Positions 813 through 28,590 of a stretch of 64,000 bases of DNA are shown here, one piece after another; position 1 is the first letter of the stretch, and every line of letters starts with the position of its first letter. The stretch covers positions 7,163 to 71,162 of the forward strand of contig JACQXR010000039.1 of the NCBI GenBank assembly GCA_016208585.1. Reading direction: 5' to 3'. The translations under genes were made by a program, and so were the position numbers. The DNA is from a candidate division TA06 bacterium (GTDB taxonomy: Bacteria > Edwardsbacteria > AC1 > EtOH8). The notes under the pieces are model-generated. The model saw only the letters and a program-made list of their open reading frames with translations. It made no database searches and was not told where the DNA came from.

Positions 813-933
813 CGGCATAAATATATTGTTTACGTGGCTTGCAACATTTTATGAATTTTTAATACCCCGCCCGCTTGCGGCGGGGCAATTCATTGTTAGC
901 CAAGAATACGGTGATTTAGAGTATAGCAAATGA

Positions 934-1058
934 CGCTCCTCGCAGCAAGCTGCGAGGTATCGATCGTGTAGATACCATCTGTATGAAAACCTGCGGTTTT
1001 CATACTTTCCCTTTGGGGTAACCCCGAAGCGAGCTTCGAGGAATTTTTTCGATTAAAT
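934..1058. repeat. About 125-bp three-hairpin repeat element (family 1, copy A). An inverted copy lies at 7413-7533.
   Basis: Contains the hairpins cctcgcagc-aa-gctgcgagg, atgaaaacc-tgc-ggttttcat and ccccgaagc-g-agcttcgagg. Its reverse complement aligns almost base for base with 7413-7533. Confidence 0.7.
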
Positions 1059-1069
1059 GATGCACCTGT

Positions 1070-1870
1070 ATGAATCCCGAAATACTTAAATATCAGATAG
1101 GTACTATCGACACCCACCTCCACAGCCGGATCTCCTGCGATTCCGAGATGGGGATGCAGGCCGCCTGCCGCCAGGCCCTGAAGCTGGGCCTGAAGGCCCT
1201 GGTCTTTACCGAGCACGCGGACTTCGACCCCTCCGATCAGGGATATAATTTTTACGACGACCGGAAGTATAATGAAGATCTGGCCGAGGCCCAGGTGGCT
1301 ATGGGCCGATCGCTGAAGATCTACCAAGGCATTGAGATCACCTACCAGCCCCAGTACCGGCAGAAGATACTTGACTTCATCCACCAACACCAGTTCGACT
1401 TTACCATCGGCTCGGTGCATAAGGTGGGGGAGGACGATGTTTCCTGGCCCGAGCTGGCCAAAAAATATTATGGCTTGATGGAAGAGGAACAGGCCTACGG
1501 CGAGTATTTCCAAGAAGTGGAGAAACTGATAGATAGCCGGCTGTTCGACTGCCTGGGCCACCTGGACCTTTGCAAAAGGTACGGCCACCTGCATTACGGC
1601 CCGCTGATATACAGAAAATACGAGAAGAGCTATAAAAAGCTGTTGAAACGGCTGATCCAGTTGGACATGATGCTGGAGATAAATACCTCGGGCCTGCGCC
1701 GGCAGATCCGGGAGACTTTCCCTCCTTATCCGGCGGTGCTGGAATACCTGAAGATGGGCGGGACCAGGCTGATCTTGGGCAGCGACGCCCACCGCATTCA
1801 GGATATCGGCCAGGACTTCGAAAAAGTGCTCCAGGACCTACCCCAACTCAACAAGATAAAGCGCAAGTGA
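1070..1870 (+). CDS. PHP-domain phosphoesterase (histidinol-phosphatase HisJ family).
   Basis: N-terminal metal-binding motif IDTHLHS and the EHADFD motif are both present. The size is ~266 aa. Confidence 0.65.
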
Positions 1871-2658
1871 AAATCGCCCTGACCATCGCCGGCTCCGACA
1901 GCGGGGCCGGGGCCGGGATCCAGGCCGACCTCAAGACCTTCGCCGCCTGCGGGGTCTACGGCATCAACGTCATTACCGCGTTGACCGCCCAGAACACCCA
2001 GGGCGTCTTCGGGATATTTCCGGTCAAGCCCGAATTCATCAGCCGGCAACTGGAGGTCCTGTTGAAGGACATGGGCTGCCAGGCCGCCAAGACGGGGATG
2101 CTTTTCAACCGCCAGGTGATCGAGGCCGTGGCCCACGACATCCGCAAGCACAAAATAGAACCCTTGGTGGTGGATCCGGTGATGGTGGCCAAAGGCGGGC
2201 ATTCGTTGCTGCAGCCCGAGGCCGAAGCGGCCATAGTGTCCTGTCTTTTCCCCCTGGCCTTTCTGGTGACCCCGAACTTGGATGAGGCCAAGCGGATCGC
2301 CAAGATGAAAGCTATCGCCGGCATAGACCAGATGAAAGAGGCGGCCTTCAAGATCTCGGTGCTGGGGCCGCGCCAGGTGCTGATCAAGGGCGGGCACCTG
2401 CCGGGCAGCGCCACCGACCTTCTGTTCGACGGAAAAAAGTTTACCGTGCTGGAAGCGCCGCGCAGCCATACTTCCAACAACCACGGCACCGGCTGCACCT
2501 ATTCGGCGGCCATCACCGCCTTCCTGGCCCGGGGCGAAAAGATCGACAGCGCCGTGGCCAAGGCCAAGCGCTATGTGACCGGAGGAATTCAGCATTCGCT
2601 TTCCATCGGCCACGGCCATGGTCCGCTGGACCATTTCTGGGAGATGGAGAAAAAGTAG
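1867..2658 (+). CDS. thiD: Hydroxymethylpyrimidine/phosphomethylpyrimidine kinase.
   Basis: N-terminus [25 protein letters not shown] matches the ThiD/PdxK ribokinase fold. The GTGC motif is present near the C-terminus. There is a 4-nt overlap with the upstream gene. Confidence 0.85.
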
Positions 2659-2765
2659 ATCTTGATTTGTCGGCGTCTCCGGATGCTATTCCTTTGAACA
2701 GGTTTGGGGATCGCTCGTTGACGCTAAAACGTAATACCAATTCATAATCTAAAAAGGGCATTTAA

Positions 2766-4703
2766 ATGTTGTTGTCTTTATTGGAAATAAAAAACGGCGA
2801 ATCGGGTCGCATAGAAAACATCTTCGGTGGCCCCGGTCTCCAGGCCAGGCTGGAGAGACTGGGGCTGCATGCCGGGCTGAAAATAACCAAGGTCTCCGAC
2901 TTCGGACCGGTGGTGGTGTCATCGGACAATGGACAGGCGGCCATAGGAAGGGGAATGGCCGGTCATATCAAAGTGATGGTCGACGATTTTAAGGTGCTGC
3001 TATTCGGCAATCCCAACGTGGGGAAGAGCGTGGTATTTTCTAGGCTGACCGGCCTGGGCGCCGTTTCTTCCAATTATGCAGGAACCACGGTGGAGTTTTC
3101 AAAAGGGGCCATTTGGGCCGAAGGCAAAAGGATGGAGCTGATAGATGTGCCAGGGGCCTATACTTTGGAGGCCACTTGCGCCGCCGAGAAGGTGGCCAGC
3201 GATTTCTGCTCCCGGGACCAGGCCGACCTTATTGTTAATGTGGTCGATGCCAATAACCTGGAGCGTAACCTTTATTTGACCCTGCAACTGCTGGAAAAGA
3301 AAATACCTATGATGGTGGTCCTCAACAAATGGGATATCGCCCGCCGCAAGGGCATCAATATCAACTGCGACGAGCTAGCCAAACGGCTGGGAGTGAAAGT
3401 CATTCCGGTGGTGGCCGTGACCGGCCAGGGATTGCGGGAACTGATGTCAGCCGTGGCCGCCGCCGGCCGGGAGGCAATAACCCCGCCCGTTTTCAAGCCC
3501 ATCGATCATCAGGAGCGTTGGCATATCATCGGGCATATCAGCCAGGAGGTGCAGCGAATCACCCACAAGCACCCCAGCCCGCTGGAGAAACTGGAGGACG
3601 CAAGCGTCCGGCCTCTCTCCGGGGTGCCGATCGCGCTGGCGGTGATGGTGTTTTCCTTTACGGTCATAAGATTTCTGGGCGAGGGCCTGATAAAATACCT
3701 GATGGACCCCTTCTTTAAAAACGTCTATGGCCCGGTGGTGCACAAGTTGGTTTCTTTTATTCCCTGGCCGGTGCTCCGCCACTTGCTGGCCGGTCGGACC
3801 CCGGAGTTTATGGAATCGTTCGGGGCTTTAACTACTGGGGTTTATATTCCCATGGCCATCGTTCTGCCGTATATTATAACATTCTATCTGGTGTTGGGTT
3901 TTCTGGAGGACATCGGATATCTGCCGCGCCTGGCGGTACTGCTGGACCGGACCATGCACCGGCTGGGGCTTCACGGCTATGCTGCTCTGCCGTTAGTTTT
4001 GAGCTGCGGCTGCAAAGTGCCCGGAGTACTAGCCTTGAGGGTGCTAGAATCGCGGCGGGAGAAGATATTGGCCCTGACCCTCTTATTAATGGCTGCCCCC
4101 TGCCTGCCTCAGTCGGCCATGATCGTATCCCTGTTATCTAACTTCGGGATGGGCTACGTCCTTATGGTTTTCGGCATTTTGATCCTGGTGGCAGTGATCA
4201 ACAGCTTATTCCTGAACCGCATCCTCAAGGGGCAGTCCCCCGAAATCATAATGGAGATACCTTCCTACCAGATACCCCACGCCGGAACACTTTTCCGGAA
4301 AACCTGGCTGCGCGTCAAGAGCTTTTTGCAGGAGGCCACCCCGCTGATAGCGCTGGGGGTGCTGGCGGTAAATATCCTGGAGATGCTGGGAGTGATAAGA
4401 TTGCTGGGCCGTCTGGCCAGACCTCTGGTGGTAAACGTCTTAGGCCTGCCCAGTGAGGCGATAAGCGTCATCCTCTTCGGGTTCCTGCGCAAGGATATCT
4501 CCATTGCTTTGTTAGAGCCTCTCAATCTCTCTCCCAAACAGGCGGTAATAGCCTCGGTGTTCCTGGTGCTGTACCTGCCATGCCTGGCTACATTTTTTGT
4601 GGCCTTCAGAGAGATCGGATGGAAGGGAATTGTGCGGGTGCTGGCTTTGACCTTTAGTTGGGCGGTAGCGGTGGGATTTCTTATTAATATGCTTTGGATT
4701 TAG
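2766..4703 (+). CDS. feoB: Ferrous iron transporter, a FeoA-FeoB fusion.
   Basis: The N-terminal ~75 aa form a FeoA SH3-like domain (IKNGESGRI...GLKITKV). This is followed by a FeoB G-domain (LLFGNPNVGKSVVFSRLTG) and a polytopic membrane domain. Confidence 0.85.
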   Translation: MLLSLLEIKNGESGRIENIFGGPGLQARLERLGLHAGLKITKVSDFGPVVVSSDNGQAAIGRGMAGHIKVMVDDFKVLLFGNPNVGKSVVFSRLTGLGAVSSNYAGTTVEFSKGAIWAEGKRMELIDVPGAYTLEATCAAEKVASDFCSRDQADLIVNVVDANNLERNLYLTLQLLEKKIPMMVVLNKWDIARRKGININCDELAKRLGVKVIPVVAVTGQGLRELMSAVAAAGREAITPPVFKPIDHQERWHIIGHISQEVQRITHKHPSPLEKLEDASVRPLSGVPIALAVMVFSFTVIRFLGEGLIKYLMDPFFKNVYGPVVHKLVSFIPWPVLRHLLAGRTPEFMESFGALTTGVYIPMAIVLPYIITFYLVLGFLEDIGYLPRLAVLLDRTMHRLGLHGYAALPLVLSCGCKVPGVLALRVLESRREKILALTLLLMAAPCLPQSAMIVSLLSNFGMGYVLMVFGILILVAVINSLFLNRILKGQSPEIIMEIPSYQIPHAGTLFRKTWLRVKSFLQEATPLIALGVLAVNILEMLGVIRLLGRLARPLVVNVLGLPSEAISVILFGFLRKDISIALLEPLNLSPKQAVIASVFLVLYLPCLATFFVAFREIGWKGIVRVLALTFSWAVAVGFLINMLWI

Positions 4704-4712
4704 ACAATGAGG

Positions 4713-4950
4713 CAGCCTTTAGAGTGGAGTGCGTCAAGGAGGTGGCTTTGATACGCCGCCACAGGCGGTCACTCAGCAGCCTTTAGTGTGGAGTGTGTCA
4801 AGGAGGTGGTTTCGATACGCCGCCACAGGCGGTCACTCAGCAGCCTTTAGTGTGGAGTGTGTCAAGGAGGTGGCTTCGATACGCCGCCACAGGCGGTTAC
4901 TCAGCCACCACGCAGTTTCAGGCCGGGGGCTGAGCAGGCCGTAGGTGGCC
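4713..4950. repeat. Three tandem 64-bp direct repeats followed by a terminal hairpin, immediately upstream of the GIY-YIG gene.
   Basis: The unit cagcctttagtgtggagtgtgtcaaggaggtggyttcgatacgccgccacaggcggtcactcag occurs three times head to tail. The array ends in ccaccacgcagtttcaggccgggggctgagcaggccgtaggtggcc. Confidence 0.8.
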
Positions 4951-4996
4951 TTATCTAATCCCCAACTTTGAGCAGTTAATAAAAAAGGGAATCCAG

Positions 4997-5287
4997 ATGC
5001 CTTACATGTATATTCTGGAATGTTCTGATGGCAGCTATTATACGGGCAGCACAGTATCATTGGAAAAGCGCTTAAGGGAACACCAGAATGGCTTGGGTGC
5101 AAACCATACTAAAAAACGGTTGCCGGTAAAATTGGTTTATTATGAGGAATACCAAAGGATAGTCACCGCCTTTTACCGGGAAAAACAGGTCCAGGGATGG
5201 ACCCGGGCAAAGAAAATTGCCTTGATAAAAAACACTATTGGGGAATTGCCGAAATTGGCTAAAAAGATATTCAGGAAGAAGATCTAA
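4997..5287 (+). CDS. GIY-YIG nuclease family protein (UPF0213/YhbQ-like, 96 aa).
   Basis: YMYILECSDGSYYTGST...R..EH and the QVQGWTR motif are present. An RBS (aaaaaaggga) lies upstream. Confidence 0.7.
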   Translation: MPYMYILECSDGSYYTGSTVSLEKRLREHQNGLGANHTKKRLPVKLVYYEEYQRIVTAFYREKQVQGWTRAKKIALIKNTIGELPKLAKKIFRKKI

Positions 5288-5290
5288 TCG

Positions 5291-5385
5291 GGTGGCTTCG
5301 ATACAACCGCCACAGGCGGTCACTCAGCCACCACTCAGTATCCTGCCGGGGGCTGAGTAGGCCGTAAGGACGTATCGAAGCCCCC
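5291..5385. repeat. Partial copy of the 64-bp unit plus terminal hairpin, downstream of the GIY-YIG gene.
   Basis: The sequence ggtggcttcgatac..ccgccacaggcggtcactcagccaccac..ccgggggctgagtaggccgtaagg..gtatcgaagcc repeats the right half of the upstream array. It can fold as a long hairpin (gcttcgatac/gtatcgaagc). Confidence 0.75.
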
Positions 5386-5434
5386 AGGCCCAGGCAGTTT
5401 CATAATCAACGCATCTTTTCAAACTTCCCAACCC

Positions 5435-7315
5435 ATGCCATTTCTCTCCTTTGCCAATCCCGCCGGACTTTTGTTCCTGCCCCTGGCCGGGCTGCCGCTT
5501 TTGATCCATCTTTTCAGAAGACGGCGGGCCGGCGTGATCCCGTTCCCAGACATCCGTCTGCTGCAGCAGATCCAGAACGCCGCCTTAAGGCCCAGCCGGA
5601 TCAAAGAGTACCTGCTGCTGGCGGTCCGCACGTTGGTCATCCTTTTGCTGGCCCTGGTCCTGGCCCGTCCTGCAGTCAACCTGACCTTGCCGGGCTGGCT
5701 TTCCGGGGCTTCGCAGACCTGCGTCATCATTATGGACAATTCGGATAGCATGGCGGCCATCAGTCAGGATACCACGTTGCTGGACCGGGCCAAACAGAGC
5801 GCCCGGCAAGTTTTAAAAGCGCTGGGGCCCAACGCCCGGACGGCGGTGGTTTCGGCCGTTACGTGCAGCCCGGTGGTCTGCGGGCTGGCTTCCGCCGCCA
5901 CGGTCGAACGCGCGGTAACCGCGCTGCCCCAGACCGAACTCGGCACTGACCTGGAAGGCTCGATCCAGACTGCGGCCAGGATACTTGAAACCGCAGGGGT
6001 CTCCGGCGGAAGGATCATTATTTTTTCCGACCTGCAAAAAACGGCTTTCGGCCCCAAACTCTCCCCTCTTAATAAACTGCCCGGCGATCGGCCGGTCACG
6101 GTCTATCAGATAAAACCTTTCCGGCCTTTGAACAACCTGATCTGGCAGAAGGTTCAGGTCAAACCCTTGATCAATAAAATAATCGTCCAGGCCATGGTCC
6201 AGGGAGAACGCCTGCCCCAAATCGGCTTGGCGGCCAGGGGCAAAACCATTTATCAGACAAACTCCCGGCCCGGCCAGAACGGGATGATCACTTTAAGCTT
6301 CGGGCTGCCGGACCGTGATTCGCTTTACCTTTTTACCGCCGGCGACGATTTGCCGCTGGACGACAAATATTATCTGGCTTCGGTCGATAAAACAAAAAAA
6401 AATATCCTGCTGATCTCGGACGGGCCTGGCGGCGGGCCGGATTATCTTTATCAGGCCTTTGCGGTCATGGGTCAGGCCGGTTATTCGACAAAAAGAGTAA
6501 ATACATGGGAACATCAGTATTCTAAGGGCTTTGATCTGGCCGTCATCGCCAAAGCCTCAATAGATAAGGAAATACAGGCCGGAGCATTAAAATTATTGCA
6601 TAACGGCGCGGGTTTGCTGATGGCGCCTCCAGTCAATTCCGACCGGGATCAGTACCAGGAACTGTTGAAACAGTTTTCCGACATCACCCTTTCGGGCCTG
6701 GCCGATTCTTTACCTCATAATATCTACCGCCTGAACCGCTCCGGGAATGGAGAAGATATCTTGAGCGATCTAAGCCCGGCCGACCTTGAGGGGGTCAGAA
6801 TAAAAACGTATTGGAAAGCTTTTACCCGGCAAAATGCCGAACTGACGATCAACCGATCAGACCCGGTACTGATCTTCGGCTCCGGCCCAAAATTAAAAAC
6901 GGCCGTTCTTTTGGCCGGCGGTCAGCCCGGGTTTGGCGACCTGGTTTTTAAGCCGGCCTTTCTGGTGATGCTCTTGCAGACCGCCGACCGCCTGACCCGA
7001 AAATCCGCCCGGCAATCGGCAACCGGACCAGATGAAACCAACTCCGGCGGAAACTCAGAAATAAGGCAAAAATCCGGCTGGGGCCGAATAAACGGGGGAG
7101 TATCCAGAGCGGTAAACATTGCCGCGGCGGAGTCCGATCTGACGCCAGCTTCAGGTGCGGAGCTTAAAAATATCCTCCAAAATATTTCATGGAATCCCGC
7201 AGGATCAGGTTCCGGAGCGTTTTCCGGGCAAAGTCCGGCTTCAGGGCTATTTCTGTTTTTTGCCGGGCTGATGCTCTTATTGGAGATGATCATCCGGGCC
7301 GCTTCCAAAAAGTAA
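5435..7315 (+). CDS. Membrane protein with a BatA-type N-terminal double-TM domain, a vWA (MIDAS DxSxS) domain and a C-terminal TM segment.
   Basis: N-terminus MPFLSFANPAGLLFLPLAGLPLLIHLFRRRR matches the TIGR02226-like double-TM motif. IIMDNSDSM is a MIDAS-like motif. The C-terminus is hydrophobic (LFLFFAGLMLLLEMII). Confidence 0.55.
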   Translation: MPFLSFANPAGLLFLPLAGLPLLIHLFRRRRAGVIPFPDIRLLQQIQNAALRPSRIKEYLLLAVRTLVILLLALVLARPAVNLTLPGWLSGASQTCVIIMDNSDSMAAISQDTTLLDRAKQSARQVLKALGPNARTAVVSAVTCSPVVCGLASAATVERAVTALPQTELGTDLEGSIQTAARILETAGVSGGRIIIFSDLQKTAFGPKLSPLNKLPGDRPVTVYQIKPFRPLNNLIWQKVQVKPLINKIIVQAMVQGERLPQIGLAARGKTIYQTNSRPGQNGMITLSFGLPDRDSLYLFTAGDDLPLDDKYYLASVDKTKKNILLISDGPGGGPDYLYQAFAVMGQAGYSTKRVNTWEHQYSKGFDLAVIAKASIDKEIQAGALKLLHNGAGLLMAPPVNSDRDQYQELLKQFSDITLSGLADSLPHNIYRLNRSGNGEDILSDLSPADLEGVRIKTYWKAFTRQNAELTINRSDPVLIFGSGPKLKTAVLLAGGQPGFGDLVFKPAFLVMLLQTADRLTRKSARQSATGPDETNSGGNSEIRQKSGWGRINGGVSRAVNIAAAESDLTPASGAELKNILQNISWNPAGSGSGAFSGQSPASGLFLFFAGLMLLLEMIIRAASKK

Positions 7316-7412
7316 AAAAAAAGCAAAAAAATATTTGACAAAACGCTTTAAATGTGCTAATAATTATGCTTTTAAGGCCTAAAAGCTGATCCGGCCCGGA
7401 GTCAATTTATTG

Positions 7413-7533
7413 TTTAATCAATAATTCCTCCAAGCTTGCTTCGAGGTTTTCTTGAAAGGAAAGTATGAAAACCGTAAGGTTTTCATGCCAGATAAACTAC
7501 CTATAGATACCTCGTAGCTTGCTGCGAGGAGCT
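7413..7533. repeat. Family 1 three-hairpin repeat element, copy B (inverted relative to copy A).
   Basis: The reverse complement aligns with 934-1058 (gctcctcgcagcaagctRcgaggtatc ... atgaaaaccNNcggttttcatactttcc ... cgaagcRagcttSgaggaatt). Confidence 0.7.
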
Positions 7534-7953
7534 TCATTAAAAAATTCCGCCTCGACCATCTGCCTAAAATACGAAATAACCGAAACGGTGCATCTTAAGA
7601 ATTAAGGGTTGGCTTAAATAACTTAGCATTTTCGAGTTTATATTGCAATGAATATTAGCGAACACTCACTTTGTTAGTCAAAAAACATGTCATCAGTTTT
7701 ATTGTGTCATTCCCGCAAAGCTTGTCCTCGTGAAAACGGGGAGCGGGAATCCAGATGTTTTACTGGATGCCTGCTTTTGCAGGCATGACATGACACAACA
7801 AACATAACACGATAACCCTTTGTTGATATTGTTATCATTCAGCTTTATTGTGGTATATTATTTCCGCCTCGGTTTTAATCGCTTGCCCGGGAAAAAATAA
7901 GGCCCGGCAGATTTAAAATATATAAGCAATCATAAATTAAGGGGAGAATTTTT

Positions 7954-28235: not shown

Positions 28236-28486
28236 AATACTTTATGGACCACTGTCTAATGAATTTACTGAACTTTGGCAAATTTACCAGGTCTACGTCA
28301 TTTTGAGAATTACTCCTTGCTTTGCCATTGAAAAATCAATATATTTTGTCAGATTCCCTTCATAAGCCATGCATGGCACTCATTTCAGGGCGGCGCTTCG
28401 ATTGTAAGGCTTGATGTTGCGCTCAGAATGACTCGATTAGTTTTTTTTCCAAAGTTGAGAAATTTATTCTTCCTTCGGAATACTAT

Positions 28487-28590
28487 GTCCGTTAGGGCGT
28501 AGATGAAGTGAATCCTGCAAAGCAGGACCGACGAAGTCTGAGATCAAGACTAAGATGCTATGGCCGTAAGGCCATAGTCATTCACTAACC
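28487..28590. repeat. Family 2 structured repeat element, copy C (GNRA-hairpin rich). An inverted copy lies at 53925-54036.
   Basis: Contains the hairpins tcctgc-aaa-gcagga, agtct-gagatca-agact and ctatggcc-gtaa-ggccatag. Its reverse complement aligns with 53925-54036. Confidence 0.7.

Follow-up and report, generated by a model that had tools for sequence, protein, structure and literature searches.

Two inverted three-hairpin repeats in a TA06 bacterial contig as probable transposase-less derivatives of an IS200-type element

Introduction

What kind of element is a repeat of about 125 bp that consists of three hairpins, holds no gene and stands in two inverted copies on either side of 6.6 kb of DNA? 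The question is raised by a stretch of 64,000 nucleotides (nt) from a candidate division TA06 bacterium (NCBI GenBank assembly GCA_016208585.1, contig JACQXR010000039.1, positions 7,163 to 71,162 of the forward strand), which is referred to here as the window. In a preliminary description of this DNA, the repeat was considered a REP/MITE-like element, a small RNA or an array of protein-binding sites. With a probability of roughly 87%, each copy is a transposase-less, non-autonomous derivative of an IS200-type insertion sequence (IS) of the IS200/IS605 family, and hence a palindrome-associated transposable element (PATE). This assignment rests on the homology of the hairpins to parts of a transposon, on the lack of an open reading frame (ORF), of terminal inverted repeats (TIRs) and of a target-site duplication (TSD), on the TTTAAT boundary, on the absence of the copies at the corresponding sites of relatives and on strand-specific base pairing.

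Parts and limits of the two copies

The two inverted three-hairpin copies are indeed present. In a gapped alignment of 900-1090(+) with 7380-7570(-) the mean column identity is 80% over ~190 nt, while the refined copies A and B alone are 74% identical; the ungapped inverted-repeat arms returned by a repeat finder show 92% (929-964/7503-7538) and 79% identity (986-1048/7420-7482). Their limits, originally placed at 934-1058 and 7413-7533, were revised to 929-1057 and 7413-7538 by comparison with full-length relatives and now include the left-end TTTAAT, giving 129 nt for copy A and 126 nt for copy B. The parts are listed below, where R1 and R2 are covariance models built from elements with a transposase gene (tnpA) only: R1 covers the left end (LE) and the leader hairpin (8 sequences) and R2 the right end (RE; 9 sequences).

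929..1057, minus strand: copy A, whole mini element (R1 and R2 matches; side-by-side comparison with tnpA-carrying elements)
1052..1057, minus strand: TTTAAT bordering the LE of copy A, either the target or a transposon-adjacent motif (conserved LE boundary in tnpA-carrying elements)
1022..1041, minus strand: subterminal palindrome at the LE of copy A, read as CCTCGAAGCTCGCTTCGGGG on this strand (palindrome scan, R1)
983..1003, minus strand: leader (5'UTR-type) hairpin of copy A, ATGAAAACC-GCA-GGTTTTCAT, with GGGAAAGT before it (hairpin scan, R1)
938..957, minus strand: RE subterminal palindrome of copy A, CCTCGCAGCTTGCTGCGAGG, with GATA before and AGCGTCATT after it (palindrome scan, R2)
7413..7538, plus (active) strand: copy B, whole mini element (R1 and R2 matches)
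7413..7418, plus strand: TTTAAT bordering the LE of copy B (relatives L211 and L214 have ..GTTTAAT where the alignment places it)
7427..7446, plus strand: LE palindrome of copy B, CCTCCAAGCTTGCTTCGAGG, one broken pair (palindrome scan, R1)
7465..7486, plus strand: leader hairpin of copy B, ATGAAAACC-GTAA-GGTTTTCAT (R1)
7510..7529, plus strand: RE palindrome of copy B, CCTCGTAGCTTGCTGCGAGG, which includes a T.G wobble, then AGCTTCATT (palindrome scan, R2)
858..896, plus strand: solo RE-like hairpin, taataCCCCGCCCGCTTGCGGCGGGGcaattcatt (R2, 39.1 bits, E=2.6e-11)

On its active strand, copy A is composed of the TTTAAT target or flank, the LE palindrome, the leader hairpin, a linker of ~21 nt, the RE palindrome and the ..GTCATT end, so that the minus strand reads TTTAATCGAAAAAATT-(LE palindrome)-..GGGAAAGT-(ATGAAAACCGCAGGTTTTCAT)-21 nt-GATA(RE palindrome)AGCGTCATT. 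What had been described as the left palindrome is therefore the RE read backwards, and the right palindrome is the LE. The left-end sequence of the window element is TTTAATCGAAA..ATTCCTCGAAGC, and copies A and B have the internal junction GGTTTTCAT-(A/G)C-CAGAT.. in common. The solo RE, which is absent from the preliminary description, lies 46 nt past the stop of clpB and tail-to-tail with copy A. Copy A itself ends 12 nt before the start codon of the PHP gene. Logan contigs with an identical PHP protein stop at window position 1016, inside copy A, as is usual for assemblies at repeats; a presence/absence look-up of the window's own flanking proteins in identical-protein contigs returned the same sample only, or nothing.

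The palindrome CCTCGNAGCNAGCTNNGAGG occurs at four sites of the window (938, 1022, 7427 and 7510), which amounts to 8 strand matches against 0.39 expected, a count that was reached in 0 of 100 shuffles. The paired palindromes of one copy are ~84 nt apart and fold locally or against each other. Between them, the middle hairpin ATGAAAACC-loop-GGTTTTCAT (983-1003 and 7465-7486) has a loop of 3 nt in copy A and of 4 nt in copy B. Relative to shuffles, the folding z-scores of the copies range from -4.1 to -5.7 on either strand. The hairpin-compensating substitutions that had been reported between the copies could not be found: two of the stem changes are one-sided and preserve a T.G wobble, and a third disrupts a pair. 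Compensation, with A-T versus C-G at the N positions, is seen instead between the LE and RE palindromes within each copy. The reported lack of coding potential was confirmed, as neither copy contains an ORF, and a small ORF through the hairpin was ruled out because the frames that start at the hairpin AUG differ between the copies.

Homology to tnpA-carrying elements

In a blastn search of plasmids with copy A, plasmids of Piscirickettsia salmonis match over the first 40 nt. The matching hairpin is located 12 nt past the stop of a tnpA gene that is annotated as 'IS200/IS605 family transposase' and that splits an IS30 transposase gene; the RE palindrome of copy A is near-identical to the RE of this IS200-like element. 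The Piscirickettsia TnpA belongs to Pfam Y1_Tnp (E=7.7e-36). It has thousands of homologues of ~150 aa, mostly on short contigs. In several of these, the DNA upstream of tnpA reads ..TTTAATC-N10-17-ATT-CCTCGAAGCTTGCTTCG.., and the DNA downstream reads GATA-CC(T/C)CG(N)AGCTTGCT(N)CG(A/G)GG-N4-5-TCATT.

Full elements (L136, L137, L141, L159 and L166) were recovered by a metagenome scan for the middle hairpin and by tblastn for tnpA. In these elements the LE palindrome, the middle hairpin, tnpA and the RE palindrome are contiguous, and the hairpin, preceded by GGAAAGT, stands downstream of the LE palindrome and ahead of the tnpA start. In L159, for example, the left end reads TTTAATCGAAAGAATT-(palindrome)-..AGGAAAGT-(ATGAAAACCTTTGGTTTTCAT). 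Their TnpAs are again Y1_Tnp proteins (E ~1e-33 to 1e-37) and match the solved ISDra2 and ISHp608 transposases (E 1e-13 to 1e-22). The layout of the parent can thus be given as TTTAAT, ~10-17 nt, LE palindrome, GGAAAGT with the hairpin ATGAAAACC-NNN-GGTTTTCAT, ~30 nt, tnpA (~150 aa, Y1/HUH), GATA with the RE palindrome, and ~9 nt to TCATT.

When the window was searched with R1 (filters off), copy A was matched at 1057-980(-) with 80.1 bits (E=8e-16) and copy B at 7413-7489(+) with 65 bits (E=2e-12). On the opposite strands the scores drop to 32 and 26 bits, and it is this difference that fixes the orientation of the copies. With R2, matches were obtained at 7503-7540(+) (50.2 bits, E=1e-15), 964-927(-) (42.9 bits, E=8e-13) and at the solo RE, 858-896(+). 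The copies and the solo RE are all that the two models find in the window, with nothing else of note. On sequence homology, all three hairpins are accounted for as transposon ends and leader.

Termini, target and strand-specific pairing

The end palindromes are subterminal, imperfect and alike (LE 1022-1041 and 7427-7446; RE 938-957 and 7510-7529). TIRs are lacking: (T)CGAAAAAATT.. and ..AGCGTCATT, the sequences at the two termini, do not form an inverted repeat. A check for target-site duplications, which had been proposed for this repeat, found none: the flanks of copy A (..CATCA / TGCTATAC) and of copy B (..TTATTG / AAAAAATT) have no direct repeat in common. Joined across the element, the flanks would read ..TTTAAT|TGCTATAC.. 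for copy A and ..GTTTAAT|AAAAAATTCC.. for copy B. In Piscirickettsia, an intact IS30 copy on the same plasmid provides the empty site GATATCAAT|TTCAAAATG, from which it follows that the insertion took place after TCAA(T) without duplication and with an ambiguity of at most 1 nt. Both window copies and eight of the nine parents begin directly after (T)TTAAT. A classical MITE (a miniature transposable element with inverted repeats), derived from a DDE transposon, was ruled out by the lack of TIRs and TSD. The label 'REP/MITE-like' pointed to the right neighborhood, that of a non-autonomous IS200-family derivative, but terminal inverted repeats and target duplication form no part of it.

The end hairpins of IS200/IS605 elements fold on one DNA strand. 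Among 121 distinct RE hairpins, pairing on the tnpA-sense strand holds for 99.4% of cells. The single pair that was left free by the scan pattern is CG in 66 sequences, UG in 29, GC in 11, AU in 9 and UA in 5; no sequence is unpaired there, and one has a gap. The 29 U.G wobbles are all found on the tnpA-sense strand; read on the complement, they would be C.A mismatches. A T.G on the active strand is also seen in the window, namely in the RE of copy B and in the LE of copy A. Such one-sided wobbles indicate that the hairpins fold on one DNA strand.

Insertion sites and the 6.6-kb block

The PHP protein has homologues of 73-86% identity, and the nearest named ones (65%) are from Candidatus Edwardsbacteria. 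Five syntenic contigs (L211-L215) carry PHP-thiD-Zip-(GIY-YIG)-BatA/vWA-340aa-.., with every gene on the same strand, as is the case in the window, and neither R1 nor R2 has a match in the 74 kb of these relatives. At the copy B site, a near-invariant block of ~100 nt is followed by ..CTTGTTTAAT|TAAAACACGG in L211, by ..ACGGTTTAAT|CCCGTGG in L214 and by ..ATTGTTTAAT|CAATAATTCCTCC, the start of copy B, in the window. L211 and L214 thus have GTTTAAT exactly at the start position of copy B, followed by unrelated sequence without the element. In L213, the copy A site has ATTAAAT 2 nt ahead of the PHP start; the window reads ATTAAAT-GATGCACCTGT-ATG there.

Copy A adjoins the solo RE and then clpB, which is not found upstream of PHP in any of the relatives. 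The clpB-PHP order is confined to the window, which places copy A, together with the solo RE, at a synteny breakpoint. Copy B is followed by ~350 nt that are absent from the relatives. At 812-1069, the relatives have other genes upstream of PHP, which often overlap the PHP start. Within the block, FeoAB (2766-4703) occupies the place of a Zip transporter in L211-L214, the four relatives for which this interval was fetched.

A 6.6-kb unit delimited by the inverted pair finds no support in this comparison, as the five relatives keep the order and orientation PHP-thiD-transporter-vWA-340aa without the copies. As for the suggested test for an inversion, gene order and orientation within and beyond the copies are the same as in the relatives, and the block is not inverted. 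A composite transposon and an invertible 6.6-kb segment are both ruled out by synteny. From the known mechanism, moreover, the LE and RE of the two copies would not be usable as a composite single-strand transposon because they lie on opposite strands. The flanking arrangement is best read as incidental, that is, as the result of two independent insertions into AT-rich intergenic DNA.

A palindrome family across many phyla

A scan of one genome per species with the pattern CCTCGNAGCNAGCTNCGAGG gave at least 120 loci. About three quarters of the loci listed have a common context beyond the scanned pattern, with (A/T)(A/T)TGA-N4-5 before the palindrome and (T/A)ATC after it; usually a second, related palindrome follows 25-100 nt further on, and then ..GATTAAA or ..GGTTCAA. 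The hosts among these loci are Desulfobacterales metagenome-assembled genomes (many copies each), Planctomycetia, Patescibacteria, Bacteroidota, Spirochaetota, Chloroflexota and others. All-against-all clustering of the neighboring ORFs of the listed loci revealed no recurrent neighbor protein family. The spread over many phyla and the lack of a recurrent neighbor identify the palindrome family as a dispersed intergenic repeat without a tie to a particular gene, and the latter argues against a gene-linked cis-regulator.

Several searches returned little. Rfam 15 has nothing in the window at the gathering threshold, only chance-level matches at E<=10 around copy A, and nothing on the element in 18 related loci. 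A literature search for the palindrome as a sequence string found no paper. A blastn search of plasmids with the Desulfobacterales-type consensus found only an unannotated Manganitrophus sequence. A quick look at the ORFs beside hairpins without a second palindrome showed nothing obvious as transposase, and phmmer with an approximate IS608 TnpA query returned nothing in the genome loci listed. With the real TnpA, tblastn detected C-terminal TnpA fragments at the truncated ends of three loci (L063, L064 and L081).

Proposed origin and mobilization

In this reading, the segment from just past the leader hairpin to ~20 nt before the RE palindrome, comprising tnpA and its immediate flanks, has been deleted from a parent, leaving the LE, leader and RE hairpins in ~125 nt. 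Judged from sequence, the copies probably retain a remnant of the tnpA 3' end. The shared internal junction suggests that one deletion derivative spread to two sites. By analogy to IS608 and ISDra2, the Y1 TnpA would be supplied in trans by a full-length copy. It would recognize the folded palindromes of LE and RE on the tnpA-sense strand when this is single-stranded, bind them, cleave 3' of TTTAAT as well as at ..TCATT, and circularize the strand. Reinsertion would then occur 3' of another T-N-A-A-T, following a 'peel-and-paste' route as single-stranded DNA. An outline of single-strand IS200/IS605 transposition is available (PMC10055086).

Several points weigh against this interpretation. For both copies, the RE-side flank is non-homologous and only the LE-side flank is conserved in the relatives; a precise two-sided empty site for the window copies was not found among these relatives, whose RE-side flanks are not conserved. 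No cognate Y1 tnpA was detected by tblastn in the 64-kb window, and mobilization in trans is what we infer. The copies may be old and inactive, given that they are 20-26% diverged and that copy B has a broken pair in its LE stem. In addition, the leader hairpin is found in other repeat families without recognizable LE or RE palindromes, which a pure 'relic' view fails to explain. 

Pairing of the IS608 type, between the cleavage sites TTTAAT/TCATT and nucleotides located 5' of the hairpins, was sought by eye and followed no consistent rule. GC skew suggests that the plus strand is the lagging-strand template, which would agree with the orientation of copy B and of the solo RE, though not with that of copy A; this indication is weak and was not used in the assessment.

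As PATEs, the copies are an ordinary kind of small mobile DNA, and no new biological question is opened by them. Their value is one of annotation: the two structured intergenic repeats should not be taken for small RNA genes, riboswitch-like leaders or operator arrays. A model of the R1/R2 type can serve to mask this very widespread IS200 clade and its minis in metagenome-assembled genomes, where these repeats break assemblies. The copies also mark two recent points of insertion or rearrangement, the clpB|PHP junction and the leader of a polysaccharide-cluster gene.

Alternative explanations

The copies could instead be domesticated repeats of the repetitive extragenic palindrome (REP)/REPIN type, kept by a single-copy REP-associated tyrosine transposase (RAYT) and serving the host, for instance as mRNA stabilizers or terminators. 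Such a role is very unlikely, although it would agree with the two similar palindromes ~84 nt apart that fold locally or mutually, with the label 'RayT' that JGI automatic annotation gave to some TnpA homologues, with the terminator-like appearance of the leader and LE hairpins on the antisense strand and with the solo hairpin at 858-896, which sits where the clpB terminator is expected. The related transposases, however, reside inside discrete LE/RE-bounded elements at varied sites (L126-L128), interrupt genes and are mostly found on short contigs, which is the behavior of an IS and not of a single-copy RAYT. The copies furthermore keep the tnpA leader hairpin and the probable tnpA 3' remnant, and they are absent from the five relatives, whereas REP families are vertically inherited. 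The same absence bears on a structured cis-regulatory or small RNA with a function of its own, such as a leader of PHP-thiD-feoAB or of the downstream polysaccharide genes: the orthologous leaders in the five relatives lack the element. The strong predicted structure (z -4 to -5.7) would suit an RNA, as would the positions of copy A, 12 nt before the PHP start, and of copy B, ~50 nt downstream of a conserved promoter-like site; the 5'UTR of Salmonella IS200 is known to be processed into a regulatory RNA (PMC5435999). Yet copy A is antisense and copy B sense to the downstream gene, no Rfam family was matched, no neighbor gene family recurs among the loci listed and the structure is fully explained by transposon ends. 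A functional RNA is accordingly considered very unlikely, and the small RNA of the preliminary description finds no support, every part being explained by transposon ends and leader.

The same explanation leaves the proposed protein-binding site array without support. In its explicit form, two identical palindromic operators would be spaced by eight helical turns around a third palindrome, and the near-identical 20-bp palindromes ~84 bp apart would be compatible with this arrangement. These palindromes, however, flank transposase genes in many phyla, their wobble asymmetry reflects single-strand folding and not duplex recognition, and no regulator gene is associated with them, which makes operators extremely improbable. 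There is an equally slight chance that a local duplication without any family is involved. Only two full copies are present in the window, but related loci number in the hundreds across other genomes and metagenomes, and the covariance models match the copies at E-values of 1e-12 to 1e-16. The restriction to two loci that would have pointed to such a duplication does not apply to a family that is very large across phyla.

Comparison to known systems

PATEs were first defined in Haloquadratum walsbyi as elements of non-coding length without inverted terminal repeats, with near-terminal palindromes and no target duplication, arising by core deletion of IS605-type transposons (PMC3119063). Minimal IS200/IS605 elements without tnpA have been described in Geobacillus stearothermophilus (PMC10055086). 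The window copies resemble both in lacking coding length, TIRs and TSD, in having near-terminal palindromes akin to those of IS200/IS605 and in deriving from a core deletion. They differ in their host, an uncultured bacterium near Candidatus Edwardsbacteria, in their tnpA-only (IS200-group) parent and in the third, internal hairpin that they keep, the tnpA leader stem-loop.

In the IS608 (ISHp608) geometry, the cleavage/target motif is located shortly 5' of the LE hairpin, and the element ends ~9-10 nt 3' of the RE hairpin. The parent layout resembles this geometry, and the parent TnpA is homologous to those of IS608 and ISDra2 (E 1e-13 to 1e-22). In contrast to these elements, the target is T-N-A-A-T (TTTAAT, TCAAT) and not TTAC or TTGAT, and tnpB is lacking.

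The IS200 of Salmonella and other Enterobacteriaceae is likewise a tnpA-only Y1 element of ~0.6-0.7 kb in which an end hairpin is followed by a second stem-loop in the tnpA 5'UTR (PMC4513863). Its left end in Salmonella comprises a terminator hairpin and a leader stem-loop in which the Shine-Dalgarno (SD) sequence is sequestered (PMC4513863). Here, however, no Rfam-detectable nucleotide similarity was found (no match of the STnc490/art200 type), what the leader hairpin contains is an AUG preceded by a strong SD and not the SD of tnpA itself, and the window copies are without tnpA. With the RAYT-mobilized REP, BIME and REPIN repeats, the copies share the nature of short GC-rich extragenic palindromes that are related to Y1 recognition hairpins and form intergenic doublets (PMC2817692). 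Unlike these, they have the ends of a bona fide mobile IS, contain a leader remnant and are absent from close relatives.

The leader hairpin

By analogy to the SD-sequestering stem-loop of Salmonella IS200, the leader hairpin would most likely be a relic of the translational control of tnpA in the parent. It has a strong SD and an AUG, often as AUG-AAA-ACC-UAA, and the AUG of tnpA itself is without an SD. This three-codon ORF is present inside the hairpin in five of the nine tnpA-carrying parents (L136, L137, L139, L141 and L187), while in L166 a longer upstream ORF ends in AUGA and overlaps the tnpA start. Together, the upstream ORFs and the SD-less tnpA AUG suggest translational coupling or standby control.

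A more speculative thought, which is regarded as unlikely, is that the leader module (GGAAAGU-AUGAAAACC-NNN-GGUUUUCAU) is a functional unit in its own right. It is prompted by the fact that the module has been kept in independently arisen tnpA-less minis (those of the window, L193, L138 and L143) and is embedded in further abundant repeat families of a single metagenome, some of which abut tRNA genes. The module could be a cis-acting signal for single-strand transposition, or an RNA terminator or ribosome-loading device reused by the host or by the element. If so, the window copies would be more than inert relics.

As a separate observation, the module GATGAAAACCTACGGTTTTCATACTTTCCCTT forms the 3' part of other abundant repeat families in metagenome Ga0172379 (L132-L204, ~40 contigs). 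Some copies of the family that starts with TATTTGGATATCGCTCGCGCGGCTCGCTGGGCG are found directly after a tRNA 3' end (L154, L179, L194 and L195), and a second family has the flanks CCAAGGACAGTC/GGACTGTCCTTGG. No recognizable LE or RE palindromes were seen in these leader-module families of Ga0172379.

Other features of the window

A second multi-hairpin repeat family is represented by two copies of 118 nt, each just upstream of an ORF, at 28467-28584 (+) and 53923-54040 (-), which are 81% complementary. It ends in GATG-CTATGGCCGTAAGGCCATAG-TCATTCA, a hairpin with a TCATT tail like an IS200-type right end, and it may be another PATE; no plasmid match was obtained for it.

The GIY-YIG ORF (4997-5287) is bracketed by a 64-nt tandem repeat of three units (4712-4905) and by a 60-nt direct repeat (4884-4943 and 5307-5366). 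Among the syntenic relatives, only L212 has this ORF at the same position, which indicates that the cassette is variable and probably mobile.

Directly past the vWA stop, ~100 nt (7316-7405) are near-invariant in the five relatives, whose proteins are 73-90% identical. The block contains a near-consensus TTGACA-18-AATAAT (7335-7364) as well as the palindrome AGCTTTTAGGCCTTAAAAGC, and copy B starts ~50 nt downstream of the -10 element. It may be a conserved promoter, a leader or a small RNA.

Further downstream, within the ~350 nt that are absent from the relatives, a cluster of nested hairpins is found at 7706-7792 (GTCATTCCCGC..GCGGGAATCCAG..CTGGATGCCTGC..GCAGGCATGAC). The same module is present in the unrelated loci L100, L118, L156, L167, L179 and L205, twice inside IS200-type minis.

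Finally, the region from 8979 to 49846 is devoted to polysaccharide biosynthesis over ~41 kb, with the GC content falling to 0.43-0.48 between 24 and 44 kb. It splits the 341-aa gene from the MFS/ABC genes, which are adjacent to it in relative L211, and represents a variable island.

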